From a virus, in the IMG/VR virus record IMGVR_UViG_3300042485_001041, positions 1 to 64,000 of that record: a stretch of 64,000 nt of DNA; one strand, given 5' to 3'. Each line of letters begins with the position of its first letter. Position 1 is the first letter of the stretch. The position numbers and the translations under genes are program-made. Below, in pieces: positions 22,400 through 58,854 of this stretch. The notes beneath the pieces are model-generated. The model was not told the origin of the DNA, searched no databases, and worked only from the letters and a program-made list of their open reading frames with translations.

Positions 22400-22648
22400 A
22401 TGTTATCGCAGCCCCAATTTCAATCAGGGCAGGCGCAACCGCAGGCACCTGATGCGCCACCTCCGTTGTCGTTGAGCAAAAACACAACAGGTAGTGCAGC
22501 GCAGGCTACTGCATGGAGTAACCGCAGTCTTGGTGGAGGTAAGCCTCTTGCTTACTCAAGTAAGACTCGTGGCACCACCTTTAATTGGGACGATACGCAA
22601 CAAACAAACTTGCCTTCATCCGATAAGGGTGCTGGGCGAAATGAGTAA
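22400..22648 (+). CDS. Disordered protein with LSxxQF N-terminus
   Basis: MLSQPQF... Confidence 0.6.
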   Translation: MLSQPQFQSGQAQPQAPDAPPPLSLSKNTTGSAAQATAWSNRSLGGGKPLAYSSKTRGTTFNWDDTQQTNLPSSDKGAGRNE

Positions 22649-23168
22649 AAAAAGTCCTCGTATAAATTCTGAAACTTTAACTCGACCTACTGGATTTCAC
22701 CCTGCGTTGAGTGCTGTTGAGTTTGCCGCACGCACAAATGCTAAGCCATTGGTAGACGAACATGGCGTAGAGCGTGGTTTAACTATGAACGTGCACACTG
22801 GCGTTACGACCGATGAGAAACCAGCAGTTGGTTACGCAGTTGGTGGAGAGCGTGATGTTCAGGGCAAACGAATTAACACCAAAAAAGTTAGTTCAGGAAG
22901 TAAAGACCCTAAATTAACCGCAAATGATGTTTCTAAGTTCTCAGAAAAGATACGAATGGGAACTAAGGACAAGAATGTAAACATGGGTTCATGGGTAGAC
23001 TCAAGCAAGACAAAGAGTGGTGTTCAACTTGATGCTTCTCGCGTCTATACAGATAAAGAAGAAGCCACAAAGAAGATGGAAGAACGTAAAGAGGACGCTA
23101 TGTACGATGTACAGACCTTTGAAACCATTCGTAACACCAAGAAGAAGCCACGAGAGAAGAATAAATAA
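22641..23168 (+). CDS. Basic hypothetical protein
   Basis: ATG at 22641 overlaps the previous stop; G.W.D...V.LD pattern. Confidence 0.6.
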   Translation: MSKKSPRINSETLTRPTGFHPALSAVEFAARTNAKPLVDEHGVERGLTMNVHTGVTTDEKPAVGYAVGGERDVQGKRINTKKVSSGSKDPKLTANDVSKFSEKIRMGTKDKNVNMGSWVDSSKTKSGVQLDASRVYTDKEEATKKMEERKEDAMYDVQTFETIRNTKKKPREKNK

Positions 23169-23701
23169 TGGCTGGCGGTCCTAACAACCTTTCAGCCTCA
23201 CAGAACTGGCAATCACTCGGTGGTGGCGGATTTAATGGCTATAACAATCAAGGCGGTGCAGGCACTCCTGTAGCCCGTGACACGATGGATAGCCTACGCA
23301 TTGGCGTAGGTCGAGTTCCTTCTGCCGAGTATCCAGATGGTTATCTTGGAACAATTCGTTCACGTCGTGATGACCGTCTGTTAGATTCAATTAAGAATCG
23401 CGTCAATCAAAAATCTTATCAACGTGGTGTACATAAAGGTGAGCGCATTGAGCCATCAATGTACTACTGGCCTGAAGAGGTTAACCCTATGATGGGTATT
23501 CAACGTCAAATGGCAGCAGTTATTGATACTTCATCAGGTGCAACAGTTTACCGTTCATTGCGTAACGCTCCTCAAATCCACCTAACCCCTGCTCCTCACC
23601 TTGTCAATGATGGCAAGGCAAATACAAGAGCAGATGAGCCAGGTCAGATTAATGCCCGTCGTCAAGCAATGCTTGCATACTTGAGACCAGCGTGGAACTA
23701 A
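23168..23701 (+). CDS. Hypothetical protein (probably virion-associated)
   Basis: Coupled ORF; YPDGYLGTI, RGVHKGERI segments; NNLSASQ near N-terminus. Confidence 0.6.
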   Translation: MAGGPNNLSASQNWQSLGGGGFNGYNNQGGAGTPVARDTMDSLRIGVGRVPSAEYPDGYLGTIRSRRDDRLLDSIKNRVNQKSYQRGVHKGERIEPSMYYWPEEVNPMMGIQRQMAAVIDTSSGATVYRSLRNAPQIHLTPAPHLVNDGKANTRADEPGQINARRQAMLAYLRPAWN

Positions 23702-24064
23702 ATGACACAGAAGTTTGATGGAGTTTACGATCACACAAAGCCATGGCGTGCACCCGTTCAGCCAGACCTTGTAGCAAAGAAGTACTCCTATTACGGCCCA
23801 TGGGCATCCAACATGGAACGCCTAACACAACAGGCGCTAATGATTATGAATGTTCCAGGCGCTGATATTCAAGCGATGGTTCGTCCACCTCTGCCTCAGA
23901 TCCAGTTGTTTCCTGCTCGTTATGGCTACGGAGACCGCTCACAGCCAGGTATTGATGACATTGTGACTATCGACAGAAATTACACAGAGCCTCGTGTATC
24001 TTGGTTCTCAGGTGGCGTTGCTGGTTATCAAGCAGCCGAGCGTAATGGATTGGGCGGTATCTAA
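23702..24064 (+). CDS. Hypothetical protein
   Basis: Coupled ORF. Confidence 0.6.
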   Translation: MTQKFDGVYDHTKPWRAPVQPDLVAKKYSYYGPWASNMERLTQQALMIMNVPGADIQAMVRPPLPQIQLFPARYGYGDRSQPGIDDIVTIDRNYTEPRVSWFSGGVAGYQAAERNGLGGI

Positions 24065-24261
24065 TGGATGGTGACGGTATGCTATCAATGGAATTACAGG
24101 CTCGTCAGATTGCTGAAAACGCAACACGTTACAACGGTTCTGCCCCATGTCCAACCTGTGGAGTTGTTATGAACCCTGTAGAATTTATGAACAATAAAGG
24201 TCACTGTTTGTCCTGCGTAACACAACGCAAGGCATCCATAGCGAAAGGTAAGATGGCATAA
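24064..24261 (+). CDS. Small zinc-finger protein
   Basis: CPTC...CLSC. Confidence 0.6.
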   Translation: MDGDGMLSMELQARQIAENATRYNGSAPCPTCGVVMNPVEFMNNKGHCLSCVTQRKASIAKGKMA

Positions 24262-24659
24262 TGGCTACTAATGGTATGGATTCATTGAGCAATAACAAAC
24301 CGCCACGTAAGGCAAAATCAAATCCTATTATTTATAAAAAGGAAAAGCCTTCAATGAAACCTGCGATGAGCGAAGACCGTAAGTCTTATCAAGTCAGTAA
24401 AAATGTAACTGTACTTGGCGGCGGCATCGGTGGCGAAACTAAATACCGTAACAAAATTGACTCTAGAGATTTAAAGGGTGCTGCACAAGCAGTTCGTCAA
24501 AATGTAAATGCTGTTACTCCTATTTCAAAATCAGAAGCAAAAGCAAATGCTCGTGGTTTAAAGGCTGCAAATGCGTCAAAGAGATCACCTTCCGCTTTAA
24601 GTCAAAAGATTGCAAAGAAGATGTACCCAGCAGGCGTACCTAAGATGGGAAAGAAGTAA
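24261..24659 (+). CDS. Lys-rich basic protein
   Basis: Coupled ORF, very basic. Confidence 0.6.
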   Translation: MATNGMDSLSNNKPPRKAKSNPIIYKKEKPSMKPAMSEDRKSYQVSKNVTVLGGGIGGETKYRNKIDSRDLKGAAQAVRQNVNAVTPISKSEAKANARGLKAANASKRSPSALSQKIAKKMYPAGVPKMGKK

Positions 24660-24661
24660 TC

Positions 24662-24868
24662 ATGGCCGTTAATATGACACGCTCAATGAACCAATCACTG
24701 GCTAGTGGTGCTACCGATGGTAAGTACCGCAAAATTCGCCCAGATACAGAAGTTATTCCTGGACAAGGCAATGAAGAGACACTAGCAAATCGTCAATCTC
24801 TACATCCTTTCTACGGTTATGGTTTCATTACATCTGAGTATCCAAACAAAGTTAATCCAGGGAAGTAA
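24662..24868 (+). CDS. Hypothetical protein
   Basis: Coupled ORF. Confidence 0.55.
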   Translation: MAVNMTRSMNQSLASGATDGKYRKIRPDTEVIPGQGNEETLANRQSLHPFYGYGFITSEYPNKVNPGK

Positions 24869-24870
24869 TT

Positions 24871-25143
24871 ATGCGAAGCAAACCAAGAAGCCCACTTCTA
24901 GGTGGAAAACGTATGCTTGCAAATGAAATGCCAAAACCAGGTAGCAAGTATTTTCCAACATCAAAGGTAACCCCAGAAGAACATTTATCTCATCCTGAAA
25001 CACGTATTGGATTAGATCCAAATACTGGTAAATCAGTTGTATACAGCGGTGAACTTGGTGGACGCCATGTTGTTGATCCTGTTCCAGTAAGTGGTTCTTT
25101 TTTGGCTCGCAACTTCCATGATCGCAGAAAAAAAGGTAAGTAA
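24871..25143 (+). CDS. Basic hypothetical protein
   Basis: Coupled ORF. Confidence 0.55.
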   Translation: MRSKPRSPLLGGKRMLANEMPKPGSKYFPTSKVTPEEHLSHPETRIGLDPNTGKSVVYSGELGGRHVVDPVPVSGSFLARNFHDRRKKGK

Positions 25144-25292
25144 TGTTTGGTAACTTGTCCAGCCCTCAATTTGGCAGTTCAATGCCTAAACCTAAAATGG
25201 GTGCAAGCGCAGGTCCTCTTGGGTCTTCTAATATGCCTAACCAATCAGGTTCTATGGGCAGCAAAATGATGCCTATGAGAGGCGGAATGTAA
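25143..25292 (+). CDS. 49 aa Met/Gly/Ser-rich peptide with NLSxxQF tag (not in ORF track)
   Basis: MFGNLSSPQFGSSMPKPKMG...; TAATG coupling. Confidence 0.6.
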   Translation: MFGNLSSPQFGSSMPKPKMGASAGPLGSSNMPNQSGSMGSKMMPMRGGM

Positions 25293-25294
25293 TC

Positions 25295-25684
25295 ATGGCT
25301 ATTATCCGTAAAGGCGACAAAGAAGCAGAACATAAACTTAATCTCCGTGCTATAGCACAATCAGGAAATAGAAACAAGGCTTCTGATAAGAAGACAACTA
25401 AAGCAGGACTTTCTTTTATAAACAAAAATAAAACAGCAATTACCGTTGATCCAAGTAAGATAATGGTTTCAAAAGATAAATCAGGAAAATCTTCTGCAAA
25501 TTATAGAGGAGACTTTAAAGGCCCAATTAGTGGGTCAGCAATTGCCTCTTCAAAAGCAAGTAAAAAAAGAACTTTAGAAAGACAAGGTTCTGGGGTAATT
25601 CAAAGCGGAAGATTGGTTAAGGGCGGCGGTGTTGCTCGAATTGCTGGGTTGGCTAAAGACGTTAAAAAGAAATCAGGTAAGTAA
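25295..25684 (+). CDS. Lys-rich basic protein
   Basis: Coupled ORF. Confidence 0.6.
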   Translation: MAIIRKGDKEAEHKLNLRAIAQSGNRNKASDKKTTKAGLSFINKNKTAITVDPSKIMVSKDKSGKSSANYRGDFKGPISGSAIASSKASKKRTLERQGSGVIQSGRLVKGGGVARIAGLAKDVKKKSGK

Positions 25685-25686
25685 TC

Positions 25687-25872
25687 ATGGCTAATCCAGT
25701 TCCAGATCGTTCACAAGATAGCAAAGACGCAAAAATGGCTAGAGATATGGTCAGTGGCATGACTGGAAACATGAAAGCCAAATGTGGCCACGAAGATATG
25801 CTCGGTTATTTTTCAGGAACAGTATGCGGTAAGTGTGCTCGTAAAAACCAAAAGAAAGCAATGGGTAAGTAA
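25687..25872 (+). CDS. Small basic protein with CGH..CGKC
   Basis: Starts MANPVPDRS. Confidence 0.55.
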   Translation: MANPVPDRSQDSKDAKMARDMVSGMTGNMKAKCGHEDMLGYFSGTVCGKCARKNQKKAMGK

Positions 25873-25874
25873 CT

Positions 25875-26165
25875 ATGGCAGCAACAGCCGTACCTGATCG
25901 TGGGGATGACCCAAACCGTCGTATAAATGTAGGTAAATATTCTATTGAGTATGGACATAACCCTTTTACAGGACAACCAGAAGCGTGGGCGGGATCTTCA
26001 GCACGTCACAACTGGGGAAGAGCCTATGCCTCAACTATGCATGAAGACGGGAGTATCTCTCACGGTTCTCGTGGAACTGACCCTGTTCCTGCAAAGTATG
26101 TACAAACACATATTGAACGGACATTAAGAAATATGCCTTCAAAAAAACCGAATTTAGGTAACTAA
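25875..26165 (+). CDS. Hypothetical protein
   Basis: Starts MAATAVPDRG. Confidence 0.55.
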   Translation: MAATAVPDRGDDPNRRINVGKYSIEYGHNPFTGQPEAWAGSSARHNWGRAYASTMHEDGSISHGSRGTDPVPAKYVQTHIERTLRNMPSKKPNLGN

Positions 26166-26167
26166 TC

Positions 26168-26485
26168 ATGGCACAAAGAGTTGCTAAAACTAATAGGGCA
26201 AAAGCCCCAGACTTTATTGCCAGCAAGATTCCTTTTGAGGCATCAGCGCTATCTGGCTTAGAAGGCTCACGCCACGATACTGGAATGATGCCAGAGAGTG
26301 AAGCATCACGTTACAAGAGCGCAAATCCTTCTTATACAGTTATGTCCTATGGAACCCCTATTGCCTGGCATGGTGATAGCGGTTGGGATATGTCAGCAGC
26401 AAAACATTCAAGAACTACTTCACGCCATCAAGGTATCGTTCGCCGCGCTATCTTCCAAGACGGCCATGATGGAGCACGTCAATAA
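26168..26485 (+). CDS. SYGTPIAWH-family protein (paralogue of 45411-45704)
   Basis: YTVMSYGTPIAWHG..GW......S.TTS.HQG.VRRAI. Confidence 0.7.
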   Translation: MAQRVAKTNRAKAPDFIASKIPFEASALSGLEGSRHDTGMMPESEASRYKSANPSYTVMSYGTPIAWHGDSGWDMSAAKHSRTTSRHQGIVRRAIFQDGHDGARQ

Positions 26486-26658
26486 TGTCTAACCTTTCCT
26501 CTAATCAATTTAATAAGAAATCTTTTAAAAACATGGTTATGGGTGCTCGTCAAATTACAGGGAAAAATAAAAATAAGAAGTTAAAGCGCGACCCTAATCA
26601 ACGGATACCTAATCCATCAAAGGGTATTGGAATTGAGTACGCGAATAACAACGGATAA
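26485..26658 (+). CDS. 57 aa basic peptide with NLSxxQF tag (not in ORF track)
   Basis: MSNLSSNQFNKKSFK...; TAATG coupling. Confidence 0.6.
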   Translation: MSNLSSNQFNKKSFKNMVMGARQITGKNKNKKLKRDPNQRIPNPSKGIGIEYANNNG

Positions 26659-26693
26659 TCTGTTAAGATAATCGGACTACTACAAGGAGCACA

Positions 26694-27239
26694 ATGAGTA
26701 ACGTACCTCTACTAGGACAAAAGAAACAAGAAGAGCCGATGATTCGGCTGCTATTCTGTCTTGTCTGCCAAACTATTGATGAGTTACCGCCCTATGAAGG
26801 GCCAGAAGAACAAGATCACCTTCTCACTATTGCGTGTGAAGCACACGTGTTTCCATCAGGTGAACCCCACAAAGGTAAGTTATTCGTACTACCTATTCGT
26901 GCTTGGGCACATACTGAATCAAAGAAAGAAATTATTCGCCAGATTAAAGGCGGAGGATCTGCTGGTTTAGCATCCATTGATGAGACCTTCTACGAGTCAC
27001 GTTCTACCTTTATGGAAGATGCTATGACTTGCTACAAGCGTCATAACAAACCAAAAGATGGATGCCCTGATTGGCACGATAATGATTTAATGTTGATTCC
27101 TAAGACTGAAAAAGATCGTATCAAAGAAGGCATGGGAAGTTATAAGGATGCTCCTGGGCCAAAGACTTACTTATGTGATTTCTGCCCTGTTGCAATCGGT
27201 GTAGCAGAGCGTAAACAAAAACTGTTAGGACTAAAATAA
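26694..27239 (+). CDS. Cys/His-containing hypothetical protein
   Basis: AAGGAG RBS; CLVC, C...H....C, CDFC. Confidence 0.6.
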   Translation: MSNVPLLGQKKQEEPMIRLLFCLVCQTIDELPPYEGPEEQDHLLTIACEAHVFPSGEPHKGKLFVLPIRAWAHTESKKEIIRQIKGGGSAGLASIDETFYESRSTFMEDAMTCYKRHNKPKDGCPDWHDNDLMLIPKTEKDRIKEGMGSYKDAPGPKTYLCDFCPVAIGVAERKQKLLGLK

Positions 27240-27517
27240 TGGGCGAATCAAAAAAGATCCAGGCTGGATTCTCAGTAATGATAAACGAAGATGGAACACT
27301 AACAACTACAGTCTTTCCTGCAGATGAGAACGTAGCAAGACAAGCAACTACCTTTGACATCTACGGATGTAGCAAAGAGTTAGTAGATGACATTGAAAGC
27401 CAACTACTGGCTGACCGTGTTGCCAAGGCTGTTATCGCCAAGTTAATGCCACCTACGCCAGAAGAAATGGCAAAGGCTCGTATTGCTGAGGCTTTAGCCG
27501 AACGTAAGTCTGAATAA
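27239..27517 (+). CDS. Hypothetical protein
   Basis: Coupled ORF. Confidence 0.55.
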   Translation: MGESKKIQAGFSVMINEDGTLTTTVFPADENVARQATTFDIYGCSKELVDDIESQLLADRVAKAVIAKLMPPTPEEMAKARIAEALAERKSE

Positions 27518-27534
27518 CCACATAAACTAGGGGT

Positions 27535-28473
27535 ATGAATCGCCCTGACGGATTAGACCAGATAGTCGGCCCAGTAGTCGTACAGGGTTCTGCTACCTCT
27601 TACTTCTCATCCCCAGAATCTGGGCTTGATCCAAAGTTATTTACTGGCACTACCTTAAATGGTTGGGTGCGTAATGGTTTGCTACAACTGCTATTTGGTT
27701 TCCTAGGCGAAGAATACCGTCACTCAGATATTTGGGCAAAGGTATGGATCGCTGGTTCTGGCGTATCCTACCAATGGTCTGCTGCTCGTGAGCCAGGAGA
27801 CTTAGATGTTCTAATTGGCGTTGACTACATTCAATTCCGCAAAGCACATCCAGAGTATTCAGGTCTAACTGATCTTGAAATTAGCAAGATGCTTAATGAA
27901 GATTTCCGCGAGCACTTACAACCAGAGACAAAGAACTGGAACGGTTACGAAGTAACTTTCTATGTTAATCCTGGCGCTACAGATATTAGATCAATCAAAC
28001 CATACGCTGCCTATGACTTGACTCATAGCGAGTGGACTGTCTTCCCTGAAAGATTTGGCGCTCCACATAACGCTGTATGGGAAGAGATGGCAATCAGAGA
28101 TCGCACTAATGCGATGGATATTGTTGCTCGTTACTCAAAAGCGATGACAGATGTACGTGGAGCACAGAACGATCCAGCACGCCGTAACGCAGAGTCACGG
28201 CTACAACAGGCGCTGATGCAGGGTCATATGTTGTTTGATGACCTTCACGCAGCACGTCGCTTAGCATTTAGTTCTACAGGGCAGGGTTACTCTGACTTCT
28301 ATAACTACCGCTGGCAAGCAGGTAAGAAGTATGGAACTGTACCTGCTCTTCGTCAGATGCACGAGTACTGGCAAGCATCTAAGAAAAAAGAAGCAGATGA
28401 AACTTACGGTATTGAACTACCAGATACCAACACCTTGATTCGTAGAGCAGCAACGTATAGGGCAAAAGGATGA
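27535..28473 (+). CDS. Pol-beta superfamily nucleotidyltransferase
   Basis: hAGSGVSYQW......GDLDVLI motif. Confidence 0.75.
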   Translation: MNRPDGLDQIVGPVVVQGSATSYFSSPESGLDPKLFTGTTLNGWVRNGLLQLLFGFLGEEYRHSDIWAKVWIAGSGVSYQWSAAREPGDLDVLIGVDYIQFRKAHPEYSGLTDLEISKMLNEDFREHLQPETKNWNGYEVTFYVNPGATDIRSIKPYAAYDLTHSEWTVFPERFGAPHNAVWEEMAIRDRTNAMDIVARYSKAMTDVRGAQNDPARRNAESRLQQALMQGHMLFDDLHAARRLAFSSTGQGYSDFYNYRWQAGKKYGTVPALRQMHEYWQASKKKEADETYGIELPDTNTLIRRAATYRAKG

Positions 28474-28994
28474 GTCAAGATTACGTAGGTCAACACTCTG
28501 CGCCAGATCCTGAATTTGGTGCTCCGATGCACGATGTCACTGCTAATGGTATGTACCCAAAAGATTTTTATGAAAAATCTCATCACTATGTTAGCGGTGC
28601 TGAAACAGGTTCACACGAATCAATGAGCGCAGTTCGTGCTGTTAAAGGTAAACGGCACGCTTATGTAACTGTGTATCGTGCTGTGCCTCACGGAGTAAAA
28701 GGCGCAAAGATTAATGAAGGAGACTGGGTTACTCCCTCAAGAGAGTACGCCAAAGAACATGGTCGCTCTAACTTAAATAGCAAATATAGAATTATTAGTG
28801 TTAAAGCAAAAGCAGGACATCTTTGGAACGATGCTAACTCTATAAACGAATGGGGCTATCATCCATCGGCTCATATAGAGCCTCGTACCCCCGAAGAGAA
28901 TGCAAAAAGACAAGCAGACTTTGCAGCCCTTAACGAACGTTTGCAATCTAGAAAGGCTCATTTACAAGCCTTTGAAGAAGGAGCAGGAAGATGA
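28470..28994 (+). CDS. ADP-ribosyltransferase-like protein
   Basis: VYRAVP...GDWVTPSREYA..H...NEWGY (R/S/E-like arrangement). Confidence 0.5.
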   Translation: MSQDYVGQHSAPDPEFGAPMHDVTANGMYPKDFYEKSHHYVSGAETGSHESMSAVRAVKGKRHAYVTVYRAVPHGVKGAKINEGDWVTPSREYAKEHGRSNLNSKYRIISVKAKAGHLWNDANSINEWGYHPSAHIEPRTPEENAKRQADFAALNERLQSRKAHLQAFEEGAGR

Positions 28995-29443
28995 GCGCAC
29001 GTAATTTATCTTTGGCACAGCACCTTGCTGCTGGTCAACTACCTATGTTTATGACAGGTAAAGAGATACAGACTCATTTACATCCCTTTCATGGTGATCG
29101 TGAAGGGGTGGCCACAGACAAGCCAGATCCAGAAGAATGGGGTGGCAAAGAACTTCGACCAGAAACTAATAAAGAAGTGTGGGAAAGAAAGTACGACGAG
29201 TCAGTAACTAATGCTGACATGGGTGGCGCAGAGCACGGTGATAAGTACAGTAACTTGGCACAGGATATAGCCCATGAAGGTTTTAAATCCCCCCGTATTC
29301 CTGTAAACCTAGACAGACAAGAGGTATTGGGTGGTCATCATAGAGTTGCAGTTGGGGCTGAAGAGCACCCTAACCATCTTTTTCCAGTAGTACATTATGA
29401 CAACATACACGAAGCAAGGCATCAATTAAAAGAGCACTATTAA
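28991..29443 (+). CDS. ParB/Srx-like domain protein
   Basis: DIAHEGF...IPV......VLGGHHRVA; RNLSLAQ N-terminus. Confidence 0.6.
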   Translation: MSARNLSLAQHLAAGQLPMFMTGKEIQTHLHPFHGDREGVATDKPDPEEWGGKELRPETNKEVWERKYDESVTNADMGGAEHGDKYSNLAQDIAHEGFKSPRIPVNLDRQEVLGGHHRVAVGAEEHPNHLFPVVHYDNIHEARHQLKEHY

Positions 29444-29450: not shown

Positions 29451-29939
29451 ATGAACGTACTACTATCACTAGACGGAATACTAAGTTCGGAATCAGGCGA
29501 GCCAAACCGAGCAGGAGTACTTCTCTACTACGCCCTAAACACTAACAACCGCGTAGCCATCATCACCTCTCGCAAGAAAGAGGATGCCGAGCACTGGCTC
29601 TTCTCTCACGGAATTATTGGCTATGACGATTTGATGTCGTTGGAAGTCCACCTTGAAGGTGAGGACTTAAAGAAACGACAGTTTACTTTGAGCCGTAGTC
29701 GTGCTCCGATCGAGATGTACGTTGACTCTGACCCTTCAATGTGTGCGTGGGTCTTTGAGCATCATGCCGTACCCACTATCTTGCTCTCACACCCCAGTTA
29801 CATCCCAGTTGAGTTCCGACCAGATGCCCCACAGGGCGTTCGCAAGTGGTCTGACATAGAGGCTGCCATCACTCGTGTGAATGTCGCTAAGTCCAAGGGT
29901 GCAGGTCAACCTAAAGACTTAGAGTTCTGGCAAGACTAA
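29451..29939 (+). CDS. HAD-fold protein (degenerate motif I)
   Basis: LLSLDGIL, IITSR, YVDSDP. Confidence 0.55.
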   Translation: MNVLLSLDGILSSESGEPNRAGVLLYYALNTNNRVAIITSRKKEDAEHWLFSHGIIGYDDLMSLEVHLEGEDLKKRQFTLSRSRAPIEMYVDSDPSMCAWVFEHHAVPTILLSHPSYIPVEFRPDAPQGVRKWSDIEAAITRVNVAKSKGAGQPKDLEFWQD

Positions 29940-31444
29940 TGAATATCATCTTTTCTGGCGCTGAGGTAGGTTCTAATCGAACTCTCCTGGAGGGCCAAAA
30001 AGTTACTTACATGGGCATCAACTACTTTAACTTGCGTAAGCGGGGATTGCCCAAAACTAAGTTGTGGCTTATAAGCGAACACTTTACTCCAGAAACTCAG
30101 GTCTATATCGAGTCTGGGGCTAAGCAAGCCGAGAAGAATAACCTATCCCGCCAAGAGTTAGTTGACTTGGCCGCTGACTATCAAGAGTTTCTTGTCAACA
30201 ATGCCGACCGAGCATTTGCCTTTACTGAGTTCGATTCAACAGTATTGGGTTTGGAATGGGTGAAAGAACAGCGCCCCTTTTTCAGTAACGATCCAAAACT
30301 ATGGGTAGTATGGCATCAAGAGTACGGGATGCAGGAGTTAGCATCTATGTCCGAATTATACCGAAATGTCGTTATACCTAATGAAGCAATAGAAGCCCTA
30401 ACTAACTTGGCGGCCCTAACAAGGAGTTACTCCAGACAGTTTGGAACTAACTTTCATGCCCTGGCTTGTGCTAAACCCGACAACCTAAGACAGATACCAT
30501 TTGCCACAGCAAGCACAATGTCATGGCTTTCACCCATGCGTAGAGGTGAGACGATCGTCTGGGATGGAAGCAAGTTAGTCCGTTATCCAAAACGAATGAA
30601 GGATCAAGCACGACCTCGCTACAAGGCAATACTACAGAGCGCAGGACTAGACTATTCAGCGTTTACCGCAGATACTAACCAAGAAGGCACTAAGGTAGCC
30701 GTCTGGTCATACAAGAAACTAGAGGAATCAATGGACAAGAAATCACCTAACTTCCACATCATCGAGGGTGGTAAAGAGCCCCTAGTATCTGATAACAGCG
30801 ATGACACCTTATACAGTGGTTTGATGGAATTAGGGGGTATACCTTCTGATAACAGTGGTGTTGAGATGCGGAAAAAAGAACCAACAGAAGTGATTCAACG
30901 CTCCCCAGAAGAGATGCAGAATCTCCCTGTTTTTGGTTTTAAGATGAAAACAATTGTCGATACCGATGATGAAGGTCGAGAGGTTTTAAAAGATGTTCCA
31001 GTTATTCAAACGCAAAATTCGTCGCTACGTCAATGTGACACTTGCTTTGTCGCCGCTAACTGTCCTGCTTTCAAGCCTAGTAATAATTGCGCTTTTAATC
31101 TCCCAGTAGAAGTAAAGACTAAAGATCAACTCAAAGCATTAATGACTGCAATGATTGAAATGCAGGGGCAAAGAGTTGCTTTTATGCGTTTTGCTGAAGA
31201 AATGAATGGTGGATACGCAGATCCCAATGTATCTCAAGAAATAGATCGCCTATTTAAATTGGTTGGCAATCTTAAAGATATGGAAACCAATAAAGAGTTT
31301 ATCCAGATCACAGCACAGCGCCAATCTTCTGGCGGAGTTCTCTCTGCGATCTTTGGAGATCGTGCTCAGGCACTCCGAGAGTTGCCAGAAACTCTAAAAG
31401 AAGAGAGTGTGACAAGGATCATCTCGGAATCTATCGAAGACTAA
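29939..31444 (+). CDS. TGT/DpdA-like barrel (degenerate) fused to a C-terminal Cys cluster
   Basis: IESGA, EFD, VVWH, FHALA, PFATASTMSW resemble DSG, D, PVWH, HGFG, DSTSW; CDTC.....CP.......C. Confidence 0.4.
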   Translation: MNIIFSGAEVGSNRTLLEGQKVTYMGINYFNLRKRGLPKTKLWLISEHFTPETQVYIESGAKQAEKNNLSRQELVDLAADYQEFLVNNADRAFAFTEFDSTVLGLEWVKEQRPFFSNDPKLWVVWHQEYGMQELASMSELYRNVVIPNEAIEALTNLAALTRSYSRQFGTNFHALACAKPDNLRQIPFATASTMSWLSPMRRGETIVWDGSKLVRYPKRMKDQARPRYKAILQSAGLDYSAFTADTNQEGTKVAVWSYKKLEESMDKKSPNFHIIEGGKEPLVSDNSDDTLYSGLMELGGIPSDNSGVEMRKKEPTEVIQRSPEEMQNLPVFGFKMKTIVDTDDEGREVLKDVPVIQTQNSSLRQCDTCFVAANCPAFKPSNNCAFNLPVEVKTKDQLKALMTAMIEMQGQRVAFMRFAEEMNGGYADPNVSQEIDRLFKLVGNLKDMETNKEFIQITAQRQSSGGVLSAIFGDRAQALRELPETLKEESVTRIISESIED

Positions 31445-48047: not shown

Positions 48048-48140
48048 TTAATCGCACGCACGCAAGTGCCGAGCCAGGTGTCAGACACGGTTGACGACTT
48101 TTACGCTGAGGCAGTGCGGATTTTAAGCCATAATCGCCAT

Positions 48141-50522: not shown

Positions 50523-50765
50523 ATGGAAAAAGACCCTAAAGAGTTGTGGGCAGACTCCATGGCTAGACAAGATATGACCCAGATGTGGCATAACCACTCT
50601 CAGTCTAAAGGGGATAAAGAGCATAAAGGCATTCCCGCCTCCACCTGTCCAGCCTGTTTTGAGAACGACCCAGTAACAGTTGAACACTCTTACGAGTCTG
50701 ACCGTGAAGCGGCAAGAGGCCACTTGACTTCCCAACAATTTGATAAGATGTTTGGACACCTATGA
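50523..50765 (+). CDS. Small protein with C-terminal tag-like motif
   Basis: CPAC; HLTSQQF near C-terminus; TATCCT 6 nt before ATG. Confidence 0.55.
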   Translation: MEKDPKELWADSMARQDMTQMWHNHSQSKGDKEHKGIPASTCPACFENDPVTVEHSYESDREAARGHLTSQQFDKMFGHL

Positions 50766-50998
50766 GCCAAGAGAACTTAAGCCAAGAGCAATTCAAGGTA
50801 TATGACTTTGAGGCCGCTAAGAATATGAAGAAGAGCACTGGTCGTGCCGTTGCTTGGCAGAAGGACAATGACGAGTATCACCCAGATACCAAGAAGCATG
50901 ATGATGAGGCTCTGGCTATCCACGATGAGCCAGCCAAGCCAGATAACATGGCAGTTAAAGCCGCCAAGTTCATTGGCCTGATGGACCCAATCGGCTAA
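50762..50998 (+). CDS. Tagged hypothetical protein
   Basis: MSQENLSQEQF. Confidence 0.6.
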   Translation: MSQENLSQEQFKVYDFEAAKNMKKSTGRAVAWQKDNDEYHPDTKKHDDEALAIHDEPAKPDNMAVKAAKFIGLMDPIG

Positions 50999-51421
50999 AT
51001 GGTTGCTTCAGATAACCTATCTCCCAAACAGTTCAACCGTTTGAGCATGGGCGCCCCTATTGTAAAAAATTTAGGTATTGTCGCTCACGATCCTAAAGAA
51101 GACGATACTGAAGAAGGTTTTAATCGTACAGAGGCTATGTACGCTAATAAAGAGCACCATAATCCAGGTGACATGTGGGACATGCCTTCCTCAGAAGAGT
51201 TACATACAACTCAAAGCGTTTTAAACAAATCTACGATTAGACACTTTGTAGATAACCCTAATAACCCTGAAGAGTGGAAAGATGGCGAAGGCTACAACGC
51301 TCCAGAGGTTTACACTCACCAGGGTAAGTTGTGGGTTCACGAAGGCCACCATCGCCTTATCGCCTCTCGTTTAAGGGGAGACTCAAGTACAAAAGTTCAT
51401 CACTGGGATACTGGTCAGTAA
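50999..51421 (+). CDS. ParB/Srx-like protein, tagged
   Basis: MVASDNLSPKQF; LHTTQ, P.V......WVHEGHHRLIA. Confidence 0.65.
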   Translation: MVASDNLSPKQFNRLSMGAPIVKNLGIVAHDPKEDDTEEGFNRTEAMYANKEHHNPGDMWDMPSSEELHTTQSVLNKSTIRHFVDNPNNPEEWKDGEGYNAPEVYTHQGKLWVHEGHHRLIASRLRGDSSTKVHHWDTGQ

Positions 51422-51888
51422 TGGCTGAGTTTCACTCAGAATGGGGCCACGGCTATCAACCAGCCCCACCTACCAATTTAAACCTTAAGCAGTTTGCTCC
51501 ACACATTCGCTACGAAGTTCCACAGGCAGATAAGCCATTTGGCAATGCGGCAACTAACTTTGGCCTACATACTGCTGGCGTAGAACTGACAACCCAGGCA
51601 CCAGACTCAGATAAGCCATCTGAGACCCTTGGACACCTCCATTGGCATGCAACACGAGGTGAGATACTAGATGTCCACGTTGTTCCAGGCGCACGACGTA
51701 AGGGCGTTGCTACAGCGTTACTTGCTGCTGCAAAAGATGTTGCAGCAAAAACAGGTGTGCCAGCGCCAGTTCACTCAAAAGATAGAAGTGACATGGGTGA
51801 TAAGTGGGCAAAATCAGTCGGCGGCGAAATGCCAGAGCGTTTAAAGATCGGTGGAATACAAGATTTTGAGGGTATTCTTAAAAAATAA
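51421..51888 (+). CDS. GNAT acetyltransferase-like protein
   Basis: ILDVHVVPGARRKGVATALL motif A; NLNLKQF near N-terminus. Confidence 0.7.
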   Translation: MAEFHSEWGHGYQPAPPTNLNLKQFAPHIRYEVPQADKPFGNAATNFGLHTAGVELTTQAPDSDKPSETLGHLHWHATRGEILDVHVVPGARRKGVATALLAAAKDVAAKTGVPAPVHSKDRSDMGDKWAKSVGGEMPERLKIGGIQDFEGILKK

Positions 51889-53412: not shown

Positions 53413-53916
53413 ATGATGAAGCGCCCACCTAAAGATTTAGGTCAAGCATTGAAGGCTGGCTATCAGCCTATGTTTATGACTGGTGGCGAAGTTAAGAAGC
53501 ACTTTGCTCCTTATAAGCAAGATCGTCAATACAAACCAGGCGGAGTCAAAGAAACTGATCAAGAGTTGTGGGATCGCAAGTTAACTGAATCAAAACAAAC
53601 TGGTGAACAAAGATATGGCAAAGATGCTTTTGAAAGAGATAGCCGAGGTGCATGGCGCAGTTTGTCTGGCCCTGATTTAGTTCGTCGAGGAATTGGTGCA
53701 AAGACTTCTCTAGAGTCAGTTGCTCAGAGTAAAGGCATGCCTGGTGGCGCACTTCACTTACAAGATAACAATTTAGGTTCTCCATCTGGAAAACCACAGG
53801 TACTAGGTGGCCATCACCGTGTCGCCTTATCTGCCGCACAATTTCCAGAACATTTATTTCCAATTAAATATGCGCCACACATCGATGCCGCTAGAAGCGA
53901 ACCAGGTTACCGATGA
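53413..53916 (+). CDS. ParB/Srx-like protein
   Basis: QPMFMTG.E, LWDRKL.ES, VLGGHHRVA, HLFP; paralogue of 28991-29443. Confidence 0.65.
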   Translation: MMKRPPKDLGQALKAGYQPMFMTGGEVKKHFAPYKQDRQYKPGGVKETDQELWDRKLTESKQTGEQRYGKDAFERDSRGAWRSLSGPDLVRRGIGAKTSLESVAQSKGMPGGALHLQDNNLGSPSGKPQVLGGHHRVALSAAQFPEHLFPIKYAPHIDAARSEPGYR

Positions 53917-54194
53917 AAGAATACTCACTAGGCGGATTTGCGGGAAAGATCTCCGAAAAGGTTAGCCCATACACAAAAACACGAGTAAGTGTCTATCACT
54001 CAGAGCAAGCAGGCTTTGATCACTCAGATGGTCAGCGTTATACAACAATCTGCGAAGATCACGGCAACCTTGTCTCCACTCGCTCACAAGGTGCGGCAAA
54101 GTCTGCAGCGGTTAACCCAATTGACTGGTGTGAAGATTGTCAAGAAAAAGGTAAGACACTAACTGATCACTTCAACGATGGAGCGGCTAAGTAA
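53913..54194 (+). CDS. Small zinc-binding protein
   Basis: CEDHG, WCEDC. Confidence 0.6.
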   Translation: MKEYSLGGFAGKISEKVSPYTKTRVSVYHSEQAGFDHSDGQRYTTICEDHGNLVSTRSQGAAKSAAVNPIDWCEDCQEKGKTLTDHFNDGAAK

Positions 54195-54565
54195 TGAGCG
54201 CATCAGACCACTTAAACCCTAGTCAGTTTAATACTTACTACCATGCTACTGATGAGCACTCGGCAGAGTCTATTAAAAAAACAGGTCTTCGCAACGGCAC
54301 CTACATGACTCCTCATCTAGATGTCGCTAATGATTATGGGACTCACATATTCAAAGTACATGTGCCAAAGAGCCATACCTTTGCAAGCAGTCCAGATCAT
54401 TATTACGAGAGTGACTTCATTCCTAGAGAACACCAAGGCTATGTAACTGAAGAGCACCCTAATTCAGCAGACCGTGTGCACATGGAATCTAGCAAGTTAA
54501 AAATAGAAGGCCCAAAGAGTATGGAAGAGTGGCTCGGTAACAAAAGTGGAAACTGGCGTGCATGA
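54194..54565 (+). CDS. H-Y-type ART-fold protein, tagged
   Basis: MSASDHLNPSQF; YYHAT....A.SI.K.GL...TYMT.....A..YG. Confidence 0.6.
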   Translation: MSASDHLNPSQFNTYYHATDEHSAESIKKTGLRNGTYMTPHLDVANDYGTHIFKVHVPKSHTFASSPDHYYESDFIPREHQGYVTEEHPNSADRVHMESSKLKIEGPKSMEEWLGNKSGNWRA

Positions 54566-54774
54566 GCCGTAAAGATAACTTTGAAGCAGCACATGTTGCT
54601 GCTCGTGAGATTGCTCCAGGTGACTACCTTGATGCATCAATGAAGTTACGTGTACATGCAGCCAAAATGATTGGCAATGACTTTGTTGTAGCCCATAAGT
54701 TACGTGGCTCTAAGGCACCTGGCGTATCTATGTATAAGCCAGATGAGAAAGTTAGAGTGTGGCGTAAGAAATGA
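54562..54774 (+). CDS. Hypothetical protein
   Basis: Coupled ORF. Confidence 0.55.
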   Translation: MSRKDNFEAAHVAAREIAPGDYLDASMKLRVHAAKMIGNDFVVAHKLRGSKAPGVSMYKPDEKVRVWRKK

Positions 54775-55097
54775 GCGCTGAAGATAATCTTTCGTATGAA
54801 CAACTTGCTATGTTCATGACTCCTAAAGAAATTAAATCTAAATATGATGTTTCTGAGGGCGAGTACTCCGATGACGAACATGAGCCTAATCAGTTATACG
54901 CACGTAAGCGTCGTGAGGCTAAGAAAAGCGGTTTGTTTAAGAAAATAAGAAAAGAAGGCGTTCAAATTCCAGTTCAACTTTCTTCAGCAGATAAAACTAT
55001 TGCAGATGGACATCACAGAGTTGCATCAGAACGAGACAACCGCTTAATGCCAGTAGAGCATTTAGAGCCTGAAGAGATCTGGTGGCGGAATAGATGA
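54771..55097 (+). CDS. ParB/Srx-like protein, tagged
   Basis: MSAEDNLSYEQL; IRKEGV..PV, DGHHRVA. Confidence 0.65.
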   Translation: MSAEDNLSYEQLAMFMTPKEIKSKYDVSEGEYSDDEHEPNQLYARKRREAKKSGLFKKIRKEGVQIPVQLSSADKTIADGHHRVASERDNRLMPVEHLEPEEIWWRNR

Positions 55098-55219
55098 ACA
55101 ACATATCCGCTACGCAATTTGGCGCTCAAATAATGCCAAAAGAAACGTATGTCAATGTAGCGATGCAGATGACGCCTCCATCAGAGGCCTCTAACACAGC
55201 AAGTAGTACAAAAGCATGA
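55094..55219 (+). CDS. 41 aa tagged peptide (not in ORF track)
   Basis: MNNISATQFG...; ATGA overlaps on both sides. Confidence 0.5.
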   Translation: MNNISATQFGAQIMPKETYVNVAMQMTPPSEASNTASSTKA

Positions 55220-56466: not shown

Positions 56467-57015
56467 ATGACAACTATTGTAGGAGTGCAATATAAGGACC
56501 GCTGTGTTCTGGCGGCCGATAACCAGGTAACTGGTGACGGCGGTCGTAGATACAACCATCCAGAGATGAAGAAGATCTCTCAACGTGGTGCGTTCTTAAT
56601 CGCAGGTAGTGGTGAAGTAATGCCTTGCGATGTTGTCCAGCATATGTGGGTTCCGCCAAAACTTACGGCAAAAGATGGCGAAGACATTTACCACTTCATG
56701 ATTACCAAAGCAATGCCTTCTCTCAGAAAATGCTTAACTGATAACGGTTATGACTTCAATGAGGGTAAGGGAGATGGAAAAGCGGAAGAAAACCGCTTTA
56801 GTTTCATCCTTGCTGTTGGTGGAGAACTATTTGATGTAGCCGATGATCTATCAGTCATTCGGTCAGGAGATGGGATCTACGGAGTAGGTTCTGGGTCTTC
56901 TTATGCAGTTGGTGCGTTACACGCTGGAGCAAAGCCCTCTGAGGCTATTGAGATTGCCTCAAGGCTAGATGTCAATACTTCTGGGCCAATTCAGGTAGTG
57001 GAGCAACTTAAGTAA
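56467..57015 (+). CDS. Ntn-hydrolase (HslV/proteasome beta-like) protease
   Basis: MTTIVG, AAD.QVT, KI, AGSG, GVGSGS.YA.GAL, D.NT.G. Confidence 0.8.
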   Translation: MTTIVGVQYKDRCVLAADNQVTGDGGRRYNHPEMKKISQRGAFLIAGSGEVMPCDVVQHMWVPPKLTAKDGEDIYHFMITKAMPSLRKCLTDNGYDFNEGKGDGKAEENRFSFILAVGGELFDVADDLSVIRSGDGIYGVGSGSSYAVGALHAGAKPSEAIEIASRLDVNTSGPIQVVEQLK

Positions 57016-57046
57016 CTCTTTGTGTCACATATCACAGGTGATCTAA

Positions 57047-57062
57047 GTTACTCTAAAGTAAC
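57047..57062. promoter_or_regulatory. Remote copy of the GTTACT-N4-AGTAAC palindrome
   Basis: GTTACTCTAAAGTAAC, intergenic. Confidence 0.5.
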
Positions 57063-57120
57063 AACTTCATAAGAGGCTCCTGGGTATGAGCACGCAAAAA
57101 CTACCCCTATACTTCTCCTT

Positions 57121-57384
57121 ATGTCTAAAACACAAGATAAGCGTTTACAGAAGAAACAAGACCATGCGGAATTCCTTTGGAAGGACGCCCAATTAAAAGC
57201 GGCACTGGCTAAGACAGAGTTAGATCTAGCCGTAGAAACATTTAAGGATTTAAATAAAGAAATGACAACAGAACAGATATCAGCAACCCAAGAACAAGTA
57301 GAGATACAATACAAACGCATTGAGCAGTACCTAATGTCAGAAAAAGAACTCTATTTAGAACGTATGGGAATCCAACTAGATTGA
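57121..57384 (+). CDS. Coiled-coil hypothetical protein
   Basis: TATACT 7 nt before ATG. Confidence 0.55.
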   Translation: MSKTQDKRLQKKQDHAEFLWKDAQLKAALAKTELDLAVETFKDLNKEMTTEQISATQEQVEIQYKRIEQYLMSEKELYLERMGIQLD

Positions 57385-57418
57385 TAATAGGTACAACTGA
57401 GGGGGAATCGAGAACGGT

Positions 57419-57772
57419 ATGAGGAACTTAATGAAGAGTTTAAACAATGTATTAATGCGCATTGTCGCAGTTTTTGCAGCAAGTGGTCTTAGTGTTATTG
57501 GTGCTGGTGCAATCGCTGGCATCTCAACTGTTAAGGCAATTACAGTTGCAGGACTAACAGCAGTAGCAGCAGTTATCGAAAAGTTGGCTCGTGCTTTTAT
57601 GGACGATGGAAAACTAACTCTAGACGAAATCAACGCCGCGTTTTCAACCGTTGATAAGGGTGCAAAGACTGTGGCAGATGTAGAAGTAGAAGATCGTCAA
57701 GCAAAGACTAAAACTAAAGCAGCAGGTCTTATTTCAGTTCCTGCTAAAGAAGACGACCCTAACTACAACTAA
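57419..57772 (+). CDS. Holin-like membrane protein
   Basis: Two TM segments; DDGKLTLDEI tail; near endolysin. Confidence 0.55.
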   Translation: MRNLMKSLNNVLMRIVAVFAASGLSVIGAGAIAGISTVKAITVAGLTAVAAVIEKLARAFMDDGKLTLDEINAAFSTVDKGAKTVADVEVEDRQAKTKTKAAGLISVPAKEDDPNYN

Positions 57773-57951
57773 CCTCTGCTATCTGTAGAGTAAAAGCCGC
57801 CGCCTCTAAAGGCTAGGCCAAATTGAGAGTAAACACGTTGAAGAGCGTAGCCACACTTGTCGCAGACATAATTAGGTTCTGCATCATGGATGCTACGCTC
57901 TTTTTCGTAATCTAAATCGCACTCAATACATGCGTACTCGTATTTAGGCAT
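57769..57951 (-). CDS. FmdB-family zinc-ribbon protein
   Basis: MPKYEYAC..C, C..CG..L.RVYS, F.G.GFYSTDSR. Confidence 0.8.
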   Translation of the reverse strand: MPKYEYACIECDLDYEKERSIHDAEPNYVCDKCGYALQRVYSQFGLAFRGGGFYSTDSRG

Positions 57952-58119
57952 GTGTCTTGTCAATCATTTGTTTTCTCCAATTTATGCTTGTGCTCACAAT
58001 ATCGTGCCAGACTTGCAACTACAAATATCTTACGGCAGTATGAGCAAGTAAACCTTTTTAGGTCATCCACTCCACCATTATGTCCGTACACCGAGAGATA
58101 AAAGGGGCAAAATAGAGAC

Positions 58120-58284
58120 ATGTTATCTGAGCCACAATTTAAGGAAAAGGCTAGTATCGAACTAAACGGTGCGATGCCTATGGACTCTAAGTTTGATGGC
58201 CCTTCATCTCCTAAAGCAAACAAACAAGATGGAGTGATGGTAGCGAATAAAGACCTGATGCTTGCTAAGCCAGGGTTCTTTTAA
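58120..58284 (+). CDS. 54 aa tagged peptide (not in ORF track)
   Basis: MLSEPQF..., same start as 22400 (MLSQPQF); TAATG-coupled to next gene. Confidence 0.55.
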   Translation: MLSEPQFKEKASIELNGAMPMDSKFDGPSSPKANKQDGVMVANKDLMLAKPGFF

Positions 58285-58484
58285 TGACTAACATCGTCGA
58301 TGCTAGAGAGCCAATAACTCTTTCAGATCGATGCGATACCTGCGGTGCTGGTGCGATGGTTCGTGCAACGATGTTAACTGGTGAGTTGTATTTTTGTGGG
58401 CACCATGCTCGCAAACTTGGAACTAGTTTAGTTTTACAGGCTGTTGACGTGTATGACCCAGAAGGAGCGTTTAACTTTGGATAG
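58284..58484 (+). CDS. Small actinobacterial-type zinc-finger protein
   Basis: DRCDTCGA.A.......GELYFCGHH. Confidence 0.7.
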   Translation: MTNIVDAREPITLSDRCDTCGAGAMVRATMLTGELYFCGHHARKLGTSLVLQAVDVYDPEGAFNFG

Positions 58485-58854
58485 ATACGAAACTGGTAAA
58501 GGACTGATGGGTGGGCCTGGTGGGACTTACGGTCGATACTCTGTAGGCCCTGCTGTATCAGCGGAAGGAAAAAGAATGCGCAATTTATCAACTCAGTTTG
58601 ATACTGCTGAAGATATTGAAGAGAGACAACGGAAACGCTTTGGCCGTAGACGTGAGTCAGGTTATACTGGCGCAGGATTCTGGTTCTTTAATTATCCAAA
58701 TATGATTGGTTCAGTTGGTTCAGGAACAGACCCGCGTGATACTGGAAGAGGCCAAGACCAAACAGTGAGCGGCAACGGTGATGTTGCTTCAGCAACTGAT
58801 GGAACTGGAATGGGCGGCACTGCTGCAGGTTTTGTTGGAGGATTAGGTTCATGA
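58444..58854 (+). CDS. Gly-rich protein
   Basis: Internal NLSTQF; start probably the TTG near 58477. Confidence 0.55.
   Translation: MTCMTQKERLTLDRYETGKGLMGGPGGTYGRYSVGPAVSAEGKRMRNLSTQFDTAEDIEERQRKRFGRRRESGYTGAGFWFFNYPNMIGSVGSGTDPRDTGRGQDQTVSGNGDVASATDGTGMGGTAAGFVGGLGS

Follow-up and report, generated by a model that had tools for sequence, protein, structure and literature searches.

A short terminal peptide tag common to many unrelated accessory proteins of a lake-water actinophage clade: a candidate virion-loading label

Address peptides of phages and the actinophage clade studied

The internal proteins IPI-III and Alt of phage T4 start with a capsid-targeting sequence (CTS), a peptide of ~10 residues carried by unrelated and fast-evolving accessory proteins that include an ADP-ribosyltransferase (ART) and are encoded at variable loci (PMC3012670). 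A short peptide motif, hereafter called the tag, is described here in a 64,000-nucleotide (nt) stretch of viral DNA from lake water (the window), which represents bases 1-64000 of the 81,218-bp IMG/VR record IMGVR_UViG_3300042485_001041 (genome label G000). The tag, basically (N/H)LSxxQF, stands mostly at the start of small proteins encoded between positions 22,400 and 58,854, and a first-pass annotation made from the sequence had proposed that it loads interchangeable effectors into the virion or docks them on one partner. It is a portable terminal motif, selected at the peptide level and common to many unrelated accessory proteins of one phage clade.

Related strategies are known from other systems. 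The myovirus P1, with its DarB/Dar antirestriction proteins, loads anti-defence proteins into the head by means of an N-terminal segment. Encapsulins use short terminal cargo-loading peptides (N or C) in a disordered linker to dock diverse enzymes inside a shell of the HK97 fold. T4 Alt is packaged, and polyvalent proteins carry domains such as ART, ParB-like and GNAT. Polyvalent proteins and MuF-fused toxins, the subject of work by Iyer et al. and Jamet et al. in 2017, reportedly have ART, ParB-like and acetyltransferase domains that are delivered with the virion. The ARTs of freshwater actinophages have been discussed solely as possible anti-grazer toxins (PMC6802176).

The gene set of the genome comprises 127 genes and 25,057 amino acids (aa). 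An actinophage is indicated by two WhiB-like genes (recognised by eye), a DpdA-like transglycosylase at 29939-31444, for which a reading as terminase was not upheld, a class II ribonucleotide reductase and the following packaging and head genes (genome coordinates):

66060: TerL
68432: portal
70301-71068: scaffold
71103: major capsid protein

The nearest cultured phages are the BRock-type Streptomyces phages, which have head genes in common with this genome, capsid-protein identity being 60-62%, and which are myoviruses since their annotation includes sheath and tube genes. A capsid protein 80-98% identical is encoded in more than 600 IMG/VR contigs. The comparison set consisted of seven related near-complete genomes, G001-G007, and Streptomyces phage BRock. 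The capsid proteins of G003, G005 and G007 are 82-85% identical to that of G000, and G006, with 93% capsid identity, is only 79% complete as a genome. The census of tagged proteins covered 2.28 Mb of related loci and genomes, and that of gene families 105 loci. A blastn search of cultured phages gave no DNA match to the island of tagged genes; short, near-identical contig pieces from four other lake-water runs cover the island, and no cassette junctions are visible in them.

Presence and enrichment of the motif

All 14 N-terminal copies listed by the first-pass annotation are real and directly follow the ATG, and the three internal copies are real as well (HLTSQQF at 50721, NLNLKQF at 51475 and NLSTQF at 58582). 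The 14 genes lie on the + strand, their starts being summarised by M-x(0-5)-[NH]-[LI]-[SGN]-x(1-3)-Q-[FW], and in the three others the motif stands 18-66 residues from the start. Its two 'weaker' copies proved to differ in kind, that at 23168 being the conserved start of a core gene and that in the gene at 48066 a degenerate internal LLNETLF. The strict motif, [NH][LI][SGNT]x1-3Q[FW] starting within residues 1-11, is N-terminal in nine genes of the genome, where 2000 protein shuffles average 0.01 such genes and never exceed one, and a relaxed motif is N-terminal in 12 genes where 0.21 are expected from shuffles. The enrichment over background is clear. Elsewhere in the 25,057-residue proteome the strict motif has just three matches, those at 50721, 51475 and 58582, all in the same two gene blocks. 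Across 714 kb of related loci, 202 N-terminal tags are found on the gene strand and 13 on the opposite strand. About one gene in eight is tagged in the genome studied. Literature searches found no published description of the motif, as had been supposed, and the tag matched no family of Pfam or PHROGs, nor did most of its cargo.

The genes that carry the tag, a decayed or weak form of it, or an untagged member of a tagged family are the following:

22400-22648, + strand: 82-aa disordered protein, tag MLSQPQF at 22400-22420
23168-23701, + strand: 177-aa core protein, weak member, tag-like N-terminus MAGGPNNLSASQNW (NNLSASQNW)
25143-25292, + strand: 49-aa G/S/P/M-rich peptide, tag MFGNLSSPQF
26485-26658, + strand: 57-aa basic peptide, tag MSNLSSNQF, the commonest form in the clade
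28991-29443, + strand: 150-aa ParB-like (GHHR) protein, tag MSARNLSLAQH
48066-48749, + strand: 227-aa ART-like paralogue, degenerate LLNETLF ~84 residues in
48749-49171, + strand: 140-aa R-S-E ART-like protein, tag MAAQDNLSEALF
49171-49602, + strand: 143-aa protein without family match, tag MAASDNLSPKQF
49602-50081, + strand: 159-aa ART-like paralogue, short-spacer tag MAASDHLGPQW
50081-50455, + strand: 124-aa protein of predicted ParB/Srx fold, tag MAAEDNLSNAQW
50523-50765, + strand: 80-aa protein, HLTSQQF at 50721-50741, 7 residues from the C-terminus
50762-50998, + strand: 78-aa protein, tag MSQENLSQEQF, with AGC as the Ser codon
50999-51421, + strand: 140-aa ParB-like (GHHR) protein, tag MVASDNLSPKQF
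51421-51888, + strand: 155-aa GNAT acetyltransferase, NLNLKQF at residues 19-25 (51475-51495)
53413-53916, + strand: 167-aa ParB-like paralogue, decayed tag KDLGQAL, E 1.5e-17 to 28991
54194-54565, + strand: 123-aa protein, tag MSASDHLNPSQF followed by YYHATD
54562-54774, + strand: 70-aa untagged protein, of a family tagged in other contigs (MSNLNHKQF...) in 3 of 12 members
54771-55097, + strand: 108-aa ParB-like protein, tag MSAEDNLSYEQL
55094-55219, + strand: 41-aa peptide, tag MNNISATQF, conserved in relatives (cluster 11)
58120-58284, + strand: 54-aa conserved disordered peptide, tag MLSEPQF (cluster 2, 13 members)
58453-58854, + strand: G/Y-rich protein, tag MRNLSTQF at the in-frame ATG 58576

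Orthologues of the 22400 protein in G001 and G002 have kept the tag (MPLSSTQF, MSSLSSSQF) while their flanking residues have changed. The start of the 23168 protein, NN[LYF]SxSQNW, is conserved across all freshwater relatives, tag-poor ones included, and may be a feature of its family rather than a portable tag. The 48066 protein has an added Cys-rich N-terminal extension of ~80 aa, and its LLNETLF lies just before the ART-like body, where it aligns by eye with the tag of 48749. The homologue of 50523 in locus L142 also ends in SHLSSEQWKEMFGK. The tag at 58582 is probably N-terminal or part of a fusion, because an in-frame ATG stands at 58576 and homologues elsewhere start there; the 58453 gene encodes either a 92-aa tagged protein or its fusion with an upstream small peptide. 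This protein belongs to cluster 0, most of whose 35 members start with MSNLSHQF. At 58453-58854 a small G/Y-rich peptide is joined in frame to the tagged G/Y-rich protein, while relatives have separate adjacent genes, each of them tagged.

Selection on the peptide

Three of the four differences between the tags of 49171 and 50999 are synonymous, in line with what the first-pass annotation had claimed. Among 184 tags of the clade, the Leu/Ile position uses nine codons (CTT/CTA/CTC/CTG/TTA/TTG/ATH) and the Ser position is encoded by TCN in 83 and by AGY in 33 cases, all six Leu and all six Ser codons being represented. No conserved DNA was found 5' of the start codons of tagged genes. Many of these starts overlap the previous stop (TAATG), yet a stop lies at or overlaps the start in only 48 of the 184 tags. 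The variety of codons at conserved residues removes the explanation by a DNA element. Conservation through such an element or through full-length paralogy, which the first-pass annotation had considered as ways to explain the motif without a peptide function, is largely refuted, as codons vary freely and the folds behind the tag differ.

Cargo families and predicted folds

The tagged proteins were originally called unrelated, which holds only in part for this genome. Four of them are ParB-like paralogues (28991, 50081, 50999 and 54771, with 53413 as a decayed fifth) and two are ART-like (48749 and 49602, with 48066 as a third that has the degenerate internal tag, E 5e-18 to 48749), the others being singletons; altogether the 16-17 tagged proteins fall into ~10-11 groups. 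The wider material restores the claim beyond G000, since 295 distinct tagged proteins form 126 cargo clusters, of which ~30 are multi-member families unlike spurious frames. Families include tagged and untagged members. The tagged fraction is 47/89 in the ParB-like family, 41/74 in the ART-like, 34/60 in another ART-like and 22/53 in the GNAT family, figures that are lower bounds because the gene caller takes the longest open reading frame.

The different domains named in the first-pass annotation were recovered. For 50081, the top Foldseek matches are the N-domains of KorB, Noc and ParB (probability 1.00, 55-60 residues, root-mean-square deviation 2.2-2.6 Å), GHHR is invariant in the family as a GxxR-type box, and a tagged relative matches PF02195 with E 2.5e-5, slightly below the curated cutoff. 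The cargo of 50081, 54771, 28991 and 50999 is thus predicted to have the ParB/Srx N-terminal domain fold. In four of the ParB-like proteins (50081, 54771, 28991 and 53413) a second conserved peptide, QL(P/D/E/A)M(F/Y)(M/K), directly follows the tag; it is confined to this family and resembles sliding-clamp-binding motifs such as QADMF and QLxLF.

For 48749, the top 23 structure matches are all R-S-E ART toxins (TreX, pertussis S1, LT-IIB, PltA, CARDS, cholera A1 and TreTu among them), but with Z scores of only 4.1-6.3, and unrelated folds come next; Foldseek E-values are at least 0.026 and Pfam gives no match. The family has an invariant Arg (R18) in hRG and an E-x-E before a strand. On these models, the 48749/49602 family may reasonably be labelled 'ART-like', which falls short of proven ART membership. 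The three ART-like paralogues (48066-50081) and their relatives also have a conserved basic tail, R-x-R-(T/R)-Y-x-(P/K)-P-R-x-(M/V)-(T/R/Q)-A, a possible second docking peptide at the opposite end of the protein.

The GNAT protein 51421 matches PF00583 with E 2.6e-6 and 28.1 bits for a cutoff of 20.7, a tagged relative scoring 24.0 bits, and in related contigs the tag is at the very start of 22 of 53 members of this family. In another large tagged family (Y/F)HGT follows straight after the tag; 54194, with its YYHATD, resembles this family, which is possibly H-Y-E ART-like. The best-conserved tagged genes encode tiny low-complexity peptides, namely the 58120-like (55 aa) and the 55094-like (41 aa) peptides, a G/Y/N/Q-rich peptide of 35-40 aa and the 58576-like G/Y-rich protein. 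The modular label-plus-cargo architecture suggested by the first-pass annotation is supported by the conservation at the peptide level, the disordered arm described below, the many families and the coexistence of tagged and untagged members.

Anatomy and position of the tag

By cluster weight, two forms of the tag prevail, M-S-N-L-S-x-x-Q-F, with three residues before the Leu, and M-S-A-x-D-N-L-S-x-x-Q-F, with six; a shorter variant is N-L-G-K/R-Q-F. The tag has two hydrophobic anchors, L/I first and F/W last, and between them a small residue, then 1-3 variable ones and a Gln. The small position is occupied by S, G or N, and forms such as MLSxPQF and MISNQQF have no Asn.

In AlphaFold2 models computed from family alignments, the 48749 protein has a predicted local distance difference test (pLDDT) of 84.7 overall and of 56 for tag residues 1-10, and in 50081 tag residues 1-13 are below 50 in front of a confident body. 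Low tag scores beside confident bodies in two different folds indicate that the tag would be a flexible arm outside the folded body. Tag density per 1000 residues is 5.8 at the N-terminus, 0.11 in the middle of proteins and 0.40 within 12 residues of the C-terminus, part of the C-terminal matches being internal sequence of the ParB-like domain family and not portable tag.

Three known motif types were discarded as identities of the tag. An N-degron requires a free N-terminus, and the tag also occurs internally and near C-termini. An N-glycosylation sequon (N-x-S/T) needs an Asn, which precedes the Leu in only about one third to half of tags by cluster weight. In a sliding-clamp-binding motif (QL[SD]LF) the residue order is reversed with respect to L-small-x-x-Q-F.

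Distribution among phages and prokaryotes

Counts of tags per genome are approximate and include convincing N-terminal tags only:

G000: 13-14 tags
G001: ~9 tags
G002: ~5 tags
G004: ~6 tags, mostly of the LGxQF form
G003, G005, G006, G007: 0-2 tags each

BRock has no convincing tag, and a de novo search of the tag-poor relatives gave no alternative shared N-terminal motif. The islands that hold the tagged genes are hypervariable, and even the nearest relative of G000 has a different content there. A scan for the exact pattern M-x-A-x-D-N-L-S-x-x-Q-F retrieved 44 viral contigs; almost all of these share genes of the clade and have 4-12 tags per locus, and contigs with this long tag span 39-60% G+C. 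The same scan over 596 Gb of prokaryote genomes gave 28 matches, which is chance level, and only two of them look real. Given the same tag over this range of base composition and its chance level in prokaryotes, the reader of the tag would be conserved in the phages or, if a host protein, conserved very strongly. A single reader very probably exists.

The two matches that look real (L242, 5665-6144; L249, 3055-3534) come from one metagenome-assembled genome of an uncultured member of the Actinomycetota (67% G+C) and are near-identical copies of a 159-aa gene starting with MSAQDNLS(R/K)AQF. The L242 copy adjoins transposases of the IS481 and IS630 types and a primase-polymerase gene.

Strand, neighbourhood and peptidases

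In G000, G001, G002 and G004 taken together, the strand of the structural genes has 25 tagged genes among 361 small ones, and the opposite strand none among 135 (p = 3.7e-4). The divergent operon (33.7-46.5 kb) is also full of small variable genes and has no tags, which agrees with the observation of the first-pass annotation on the early region. The main island, at 48.7-55.2 kb, heads a long rightward string of genes directly upstream of the lysis and packaging genes. The rightward order is main island, endolysin, HslV-like peptidase, holin-like proteins, two tagged genes, packaging, head, tail, replication, second island (22.4-29.4 kb) and dpdA. Frequent neighbours of tags are endolysin, HslV, HNH, a PD-(D/E)xK-like protein, holin-like proteins and DUF7455. 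The peptidase gene, located between the endolysin and holin-like genes just downstream of the main island, is as follows:

56467-57015, + strand: HslV-family Thr peptidase starting with MTTIVGV (phrog_1040, E 7e-29)

A homologue is present in G000, G001 and G002, the tag-richest complete genomes, and in roughly half of the loci retrieved with nothing but the tag pattern; it is absent from the complete G004, with its ~6 tagged genes. No HslU-like ATPase partner was seen. The order portal-scaffold-capsid has no intervening protease, and 20 proteins scanned gave no match to a protease PHROG.

Scans for promoters, terminators and intergenic words defined no expression classes. The word CTATCCTTG occurs in exactly three copies, all on the + strand (window 21907 and 56453, genome 68170), directly before ribosome-binding sites and 7-22 nt upstream of starts; it precedes the gene at 21937, the HslV gene and an unannotated small open reading frame at 68187 before the portal gene, and is uninformative on timing. 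After the HslV-like gene, a conserved 87-aa coiled-coil protein (57121-57384) is found in ~70 related loci. Between the lysis and packaging genes lies a 996-aa protein (59103-62093) with a signal-peptide-like start and PA14 and fn3 domains, which is also encoded in G001, G002, G004 and the incomplete, tag-poor G006 and is absent from G003, G005, G007 and BRock. The region 21937-29443 is a run of translationally coupled genes for tiny basic low-complexity proteins ending in KKGK, KKSGK or KAMGK; these small genes interrupt a series of conserved core genes, and for most of them even the nearest relative lacks a homologue.

Three proteins of the head module have termini that recall the tag. The scaffold ends in an invariant SNRGQGLFG, its last eight residues, N-R-G-Q-G-L-F-G, being its best-conserved stretch and having in common with the tag an N, a small residue at +2 and an F at +6; this loose likeness may be a coincidence, as may the loose match of the invariant capsid-protein start MASAITGTGQL to the relaxed motif. 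A 131-aa core protein encoded between TerL and portal (genome 67722-68117) starts with M-(T/S/G)-(I/L)-(S/A/G)-P-x-P-Q-F in all freshwater relatives, tag-poor ones included, and with LAPAPQV in BRock; this start may perhaps use the site that the tag uses, and the ESM Atlas gave no usable match for the protein.

Possible roles of the tag

The reading that ranks first, if only tentatively, is a virion-loading label resembling the T4 CTS. It is suggested by an architecture that matches the CTS, by cargo of types known to be delivered by phages, and by the confinement of tags to the structural strand and to one phage clade. The tag would be a short linear motif in a disordered protein end, kept by selection on the peptide, which a clade of lake-water actinophages would put on a fast-turning library of accessory proteins, comprising small ART-like, ParB/Srx-like and GNAT enzymes and many low-complexity peptides of 35-100 aa, encoded in the direction of transcription of the lysis and structural genes. 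One common partner would read the tag and recruit the tagged proteins into the assembling procapsid, and upon infection these would pass into the next host together with the DNA, like the T4 internal proteins and Alt. We infer both the single reader and the virion destination; that the adjoining HslV-like peptidase might trim the tag after its aromatic residue is a weaker suggestion still.

Several results weigh against virion loading. Few or no tags occur in G003, G005 and G007, in spite of their close capsid proteins, or in BRock, so that the structural module is independent of tags. Among eight related genomes and in the census of 105 loci no gene's presence tracks the tags, and homology scans, presence profile and family census turned up no receptor. 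No prohead protease of the T4 or HK97 type was found between the head genes or among the 20 proteins scanned, the HslV-like protein at 56467 being the sole peptidase, and after the Phe of the tag nothing is conserved and no cleavage motif is seen. Unlike the CTS, the tag lies 13-48 residues in, behind a Pro-rich leader, in several families, and it is enriched 3.7-fold near C-termini relative to protein interiors. The strand of the tags also bears replication genes, so that expression need not be 'late'; with its place beside the divergent control region, the main island could just as well consist of delayed-early accessory genes, as in the lambda nin region.

Another possible, though doubtful, role is docking on a common hub outside the virion, either a host machine (RNA polymerase, ribosome, replisome or AAA+ unfoldase) or a non-structural phage protein, which would concentrate takeover and anti-defence enzymes, together with small competing peptides, at one site in the cell. 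The shape of a short linear motif in a disordered arm suits this role, and internal and C-terminal tags, at variable distances from the N-terminus, fit a docking motif of flexible ends better than a signal that requires a free N-terminus. A very conserved hub would also explain the same tag in phages of 39-60% G+C, the cargo consists of typical host-modifying enzymes, many tagged peptides of 35-55 aa could be competitors or regulators, and the second peptide of the ParB-like proteins, QL(P/D)MF, resembles clamp-binding motifs. However, no host protein was identified as the hub, and the chance level of the long tag form in prokaryotes gives no sign of mimicry of a host motif. The divergent operon, the expected seat of early takeover genes, has no tags, and close relatives, presumably of similar hosts, manage without them.

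The virion-loading reading may also be stated in a more specific form, in which a two-anchor label of 6-7 residues, protease-independent or HslV-trimmed and placed at either flexible end, would load more than 30 effector families for co-injection, the low-complexity peptides building an internal body in the head; in this form, internal body included, it is unlikely.

Recognition or processing by a protease is quite improbable. The HslV-like Thr peptidase, or the Clp protease or proteasome of the host, would cut after the aromatic residue, and the outcome would be timed destruction or activation by removal of a leader. HslV and proteasome active sites cut after hydrophobic residues, and the invariant terminal F/W of the tag would suit HslV-type sites. 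The HslV-family gene just downstream of the island, its presence in the three tag-richest complete genomes and in about half of the tag-found loci, and the many small, disordered substrates that are accessible without an unfoldase all favour processing. Set against this are G004, complete and tagged without an HslV homologue, the missing HslU-like ATPase, the variable residues after the Phe, and a linkage that may be plain synteny because HslV sits in the lysis cassette adjoining the island.

Co-assembly, in which tagged low-complexity G/Y/N/Q-rich peptides would form a body or condensate, in the cell or in the head, that recruits tagged enzymes as clients, is very unlikely. The best-conserved tagged families are indeed such tiny peptides (clusters 0, 2, 4 and 11) and share one tag with the enzymes, but the argument is one of composition, and it overlaps with an internal core of the virion. 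Finally, it is hardly credible that the tag has no peptide function, its recurrence being due to distant paralogy of whole proteins or to a nucleic-acid element (DNA or RNA) at gene starts that serves translation coupling or as a recombination linker: many tagged genes do lie at TAATG overlaps in tightly coupled arrays, some members in G000 are true paralogues and 49171 and 50999 are weakly similar beyond the tag (E 1e-5), but Ser (TCN/AGY) and Leu (CTN/TTR) codons vary freely, stop-start contacts are the minority quoted above with upstream sequence not conserved, the folds differ (ParB/Srx, ART, GNAT) and at least 30 cargo families have no detectable mutual similarity.

Significance and comparison with known systems

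The motif is short, well defined and statistically unambiguous. It occurs on hundreds of contigs, and the phages concerned have dominant lake actinobacteria as hosts. The products that it labels, small ART-like, ParB-like and GNAT enzymes and orphan peptides, are those whose part in conflicts between phage and host is the least understood. With the reader named, about 10% of the genes of these phages would share a known fate, and effector genes could be recognised from their sequence. Were the virion the destination, foreign proteins could be loaded into an actinophage capsid by means of a minimal peptide; a host hub as reader would instead reveal a central vulnerability of uncultured hosts.

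Leaders of ribosomally synthesized and post-translationally modified peptides (RiPPs) resemble the tag in that a conserved N-terminal leader precedes hypervariable C-terminal parts, many tagged proteins being of 35-55 aa. In contrast to RiPP precursors, much of the tagged cargo consists of folded enzymes, and no gene for a RiPP maturase or RiPP recognition element (RRE) domain was seen in the island. In the polyvalent and MuF systems, domains are strung on one giant protein or fused to MuF, whereas here they are encoded by separate small labelled genes. The encapsulin consensus is GSLxIGSLK-like and unlike the tag, and encapsulins are not viruses; for the tag, binding to the capsid protein is a proposal. 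The P1 signal is of ~30 residues, on one protein, and depends on the helpers Hdf, DarA and DdrA; the tag is of 6-12 residues, on dozens of families, with no helper identified.

The closest likeness is to the T4 CTS, as both are short N-terminal peptides common to otherwise unrelated proteins. The tag differs from the CTS (MKTYQEFIAE) in having no sequence similarity to it, no conserved Glu and no L/I-x-E cleavage site, and no gp21-type protease was found among the proteins scanned. It also differs in lying sometimes 13-48 residues in or at the C-terminus, in its far more numerous cargo families and in the actinobacterial host, and capsid targeting is here a proposal. To our knowledge, experiments have established address peptides common to diverse phage proteins in T4-type phages only; if the tag is indeed a protease-independent or HslV-trimmed virion label, it would be the first cargo-loading code of a general kind beyond the T4-like phages.

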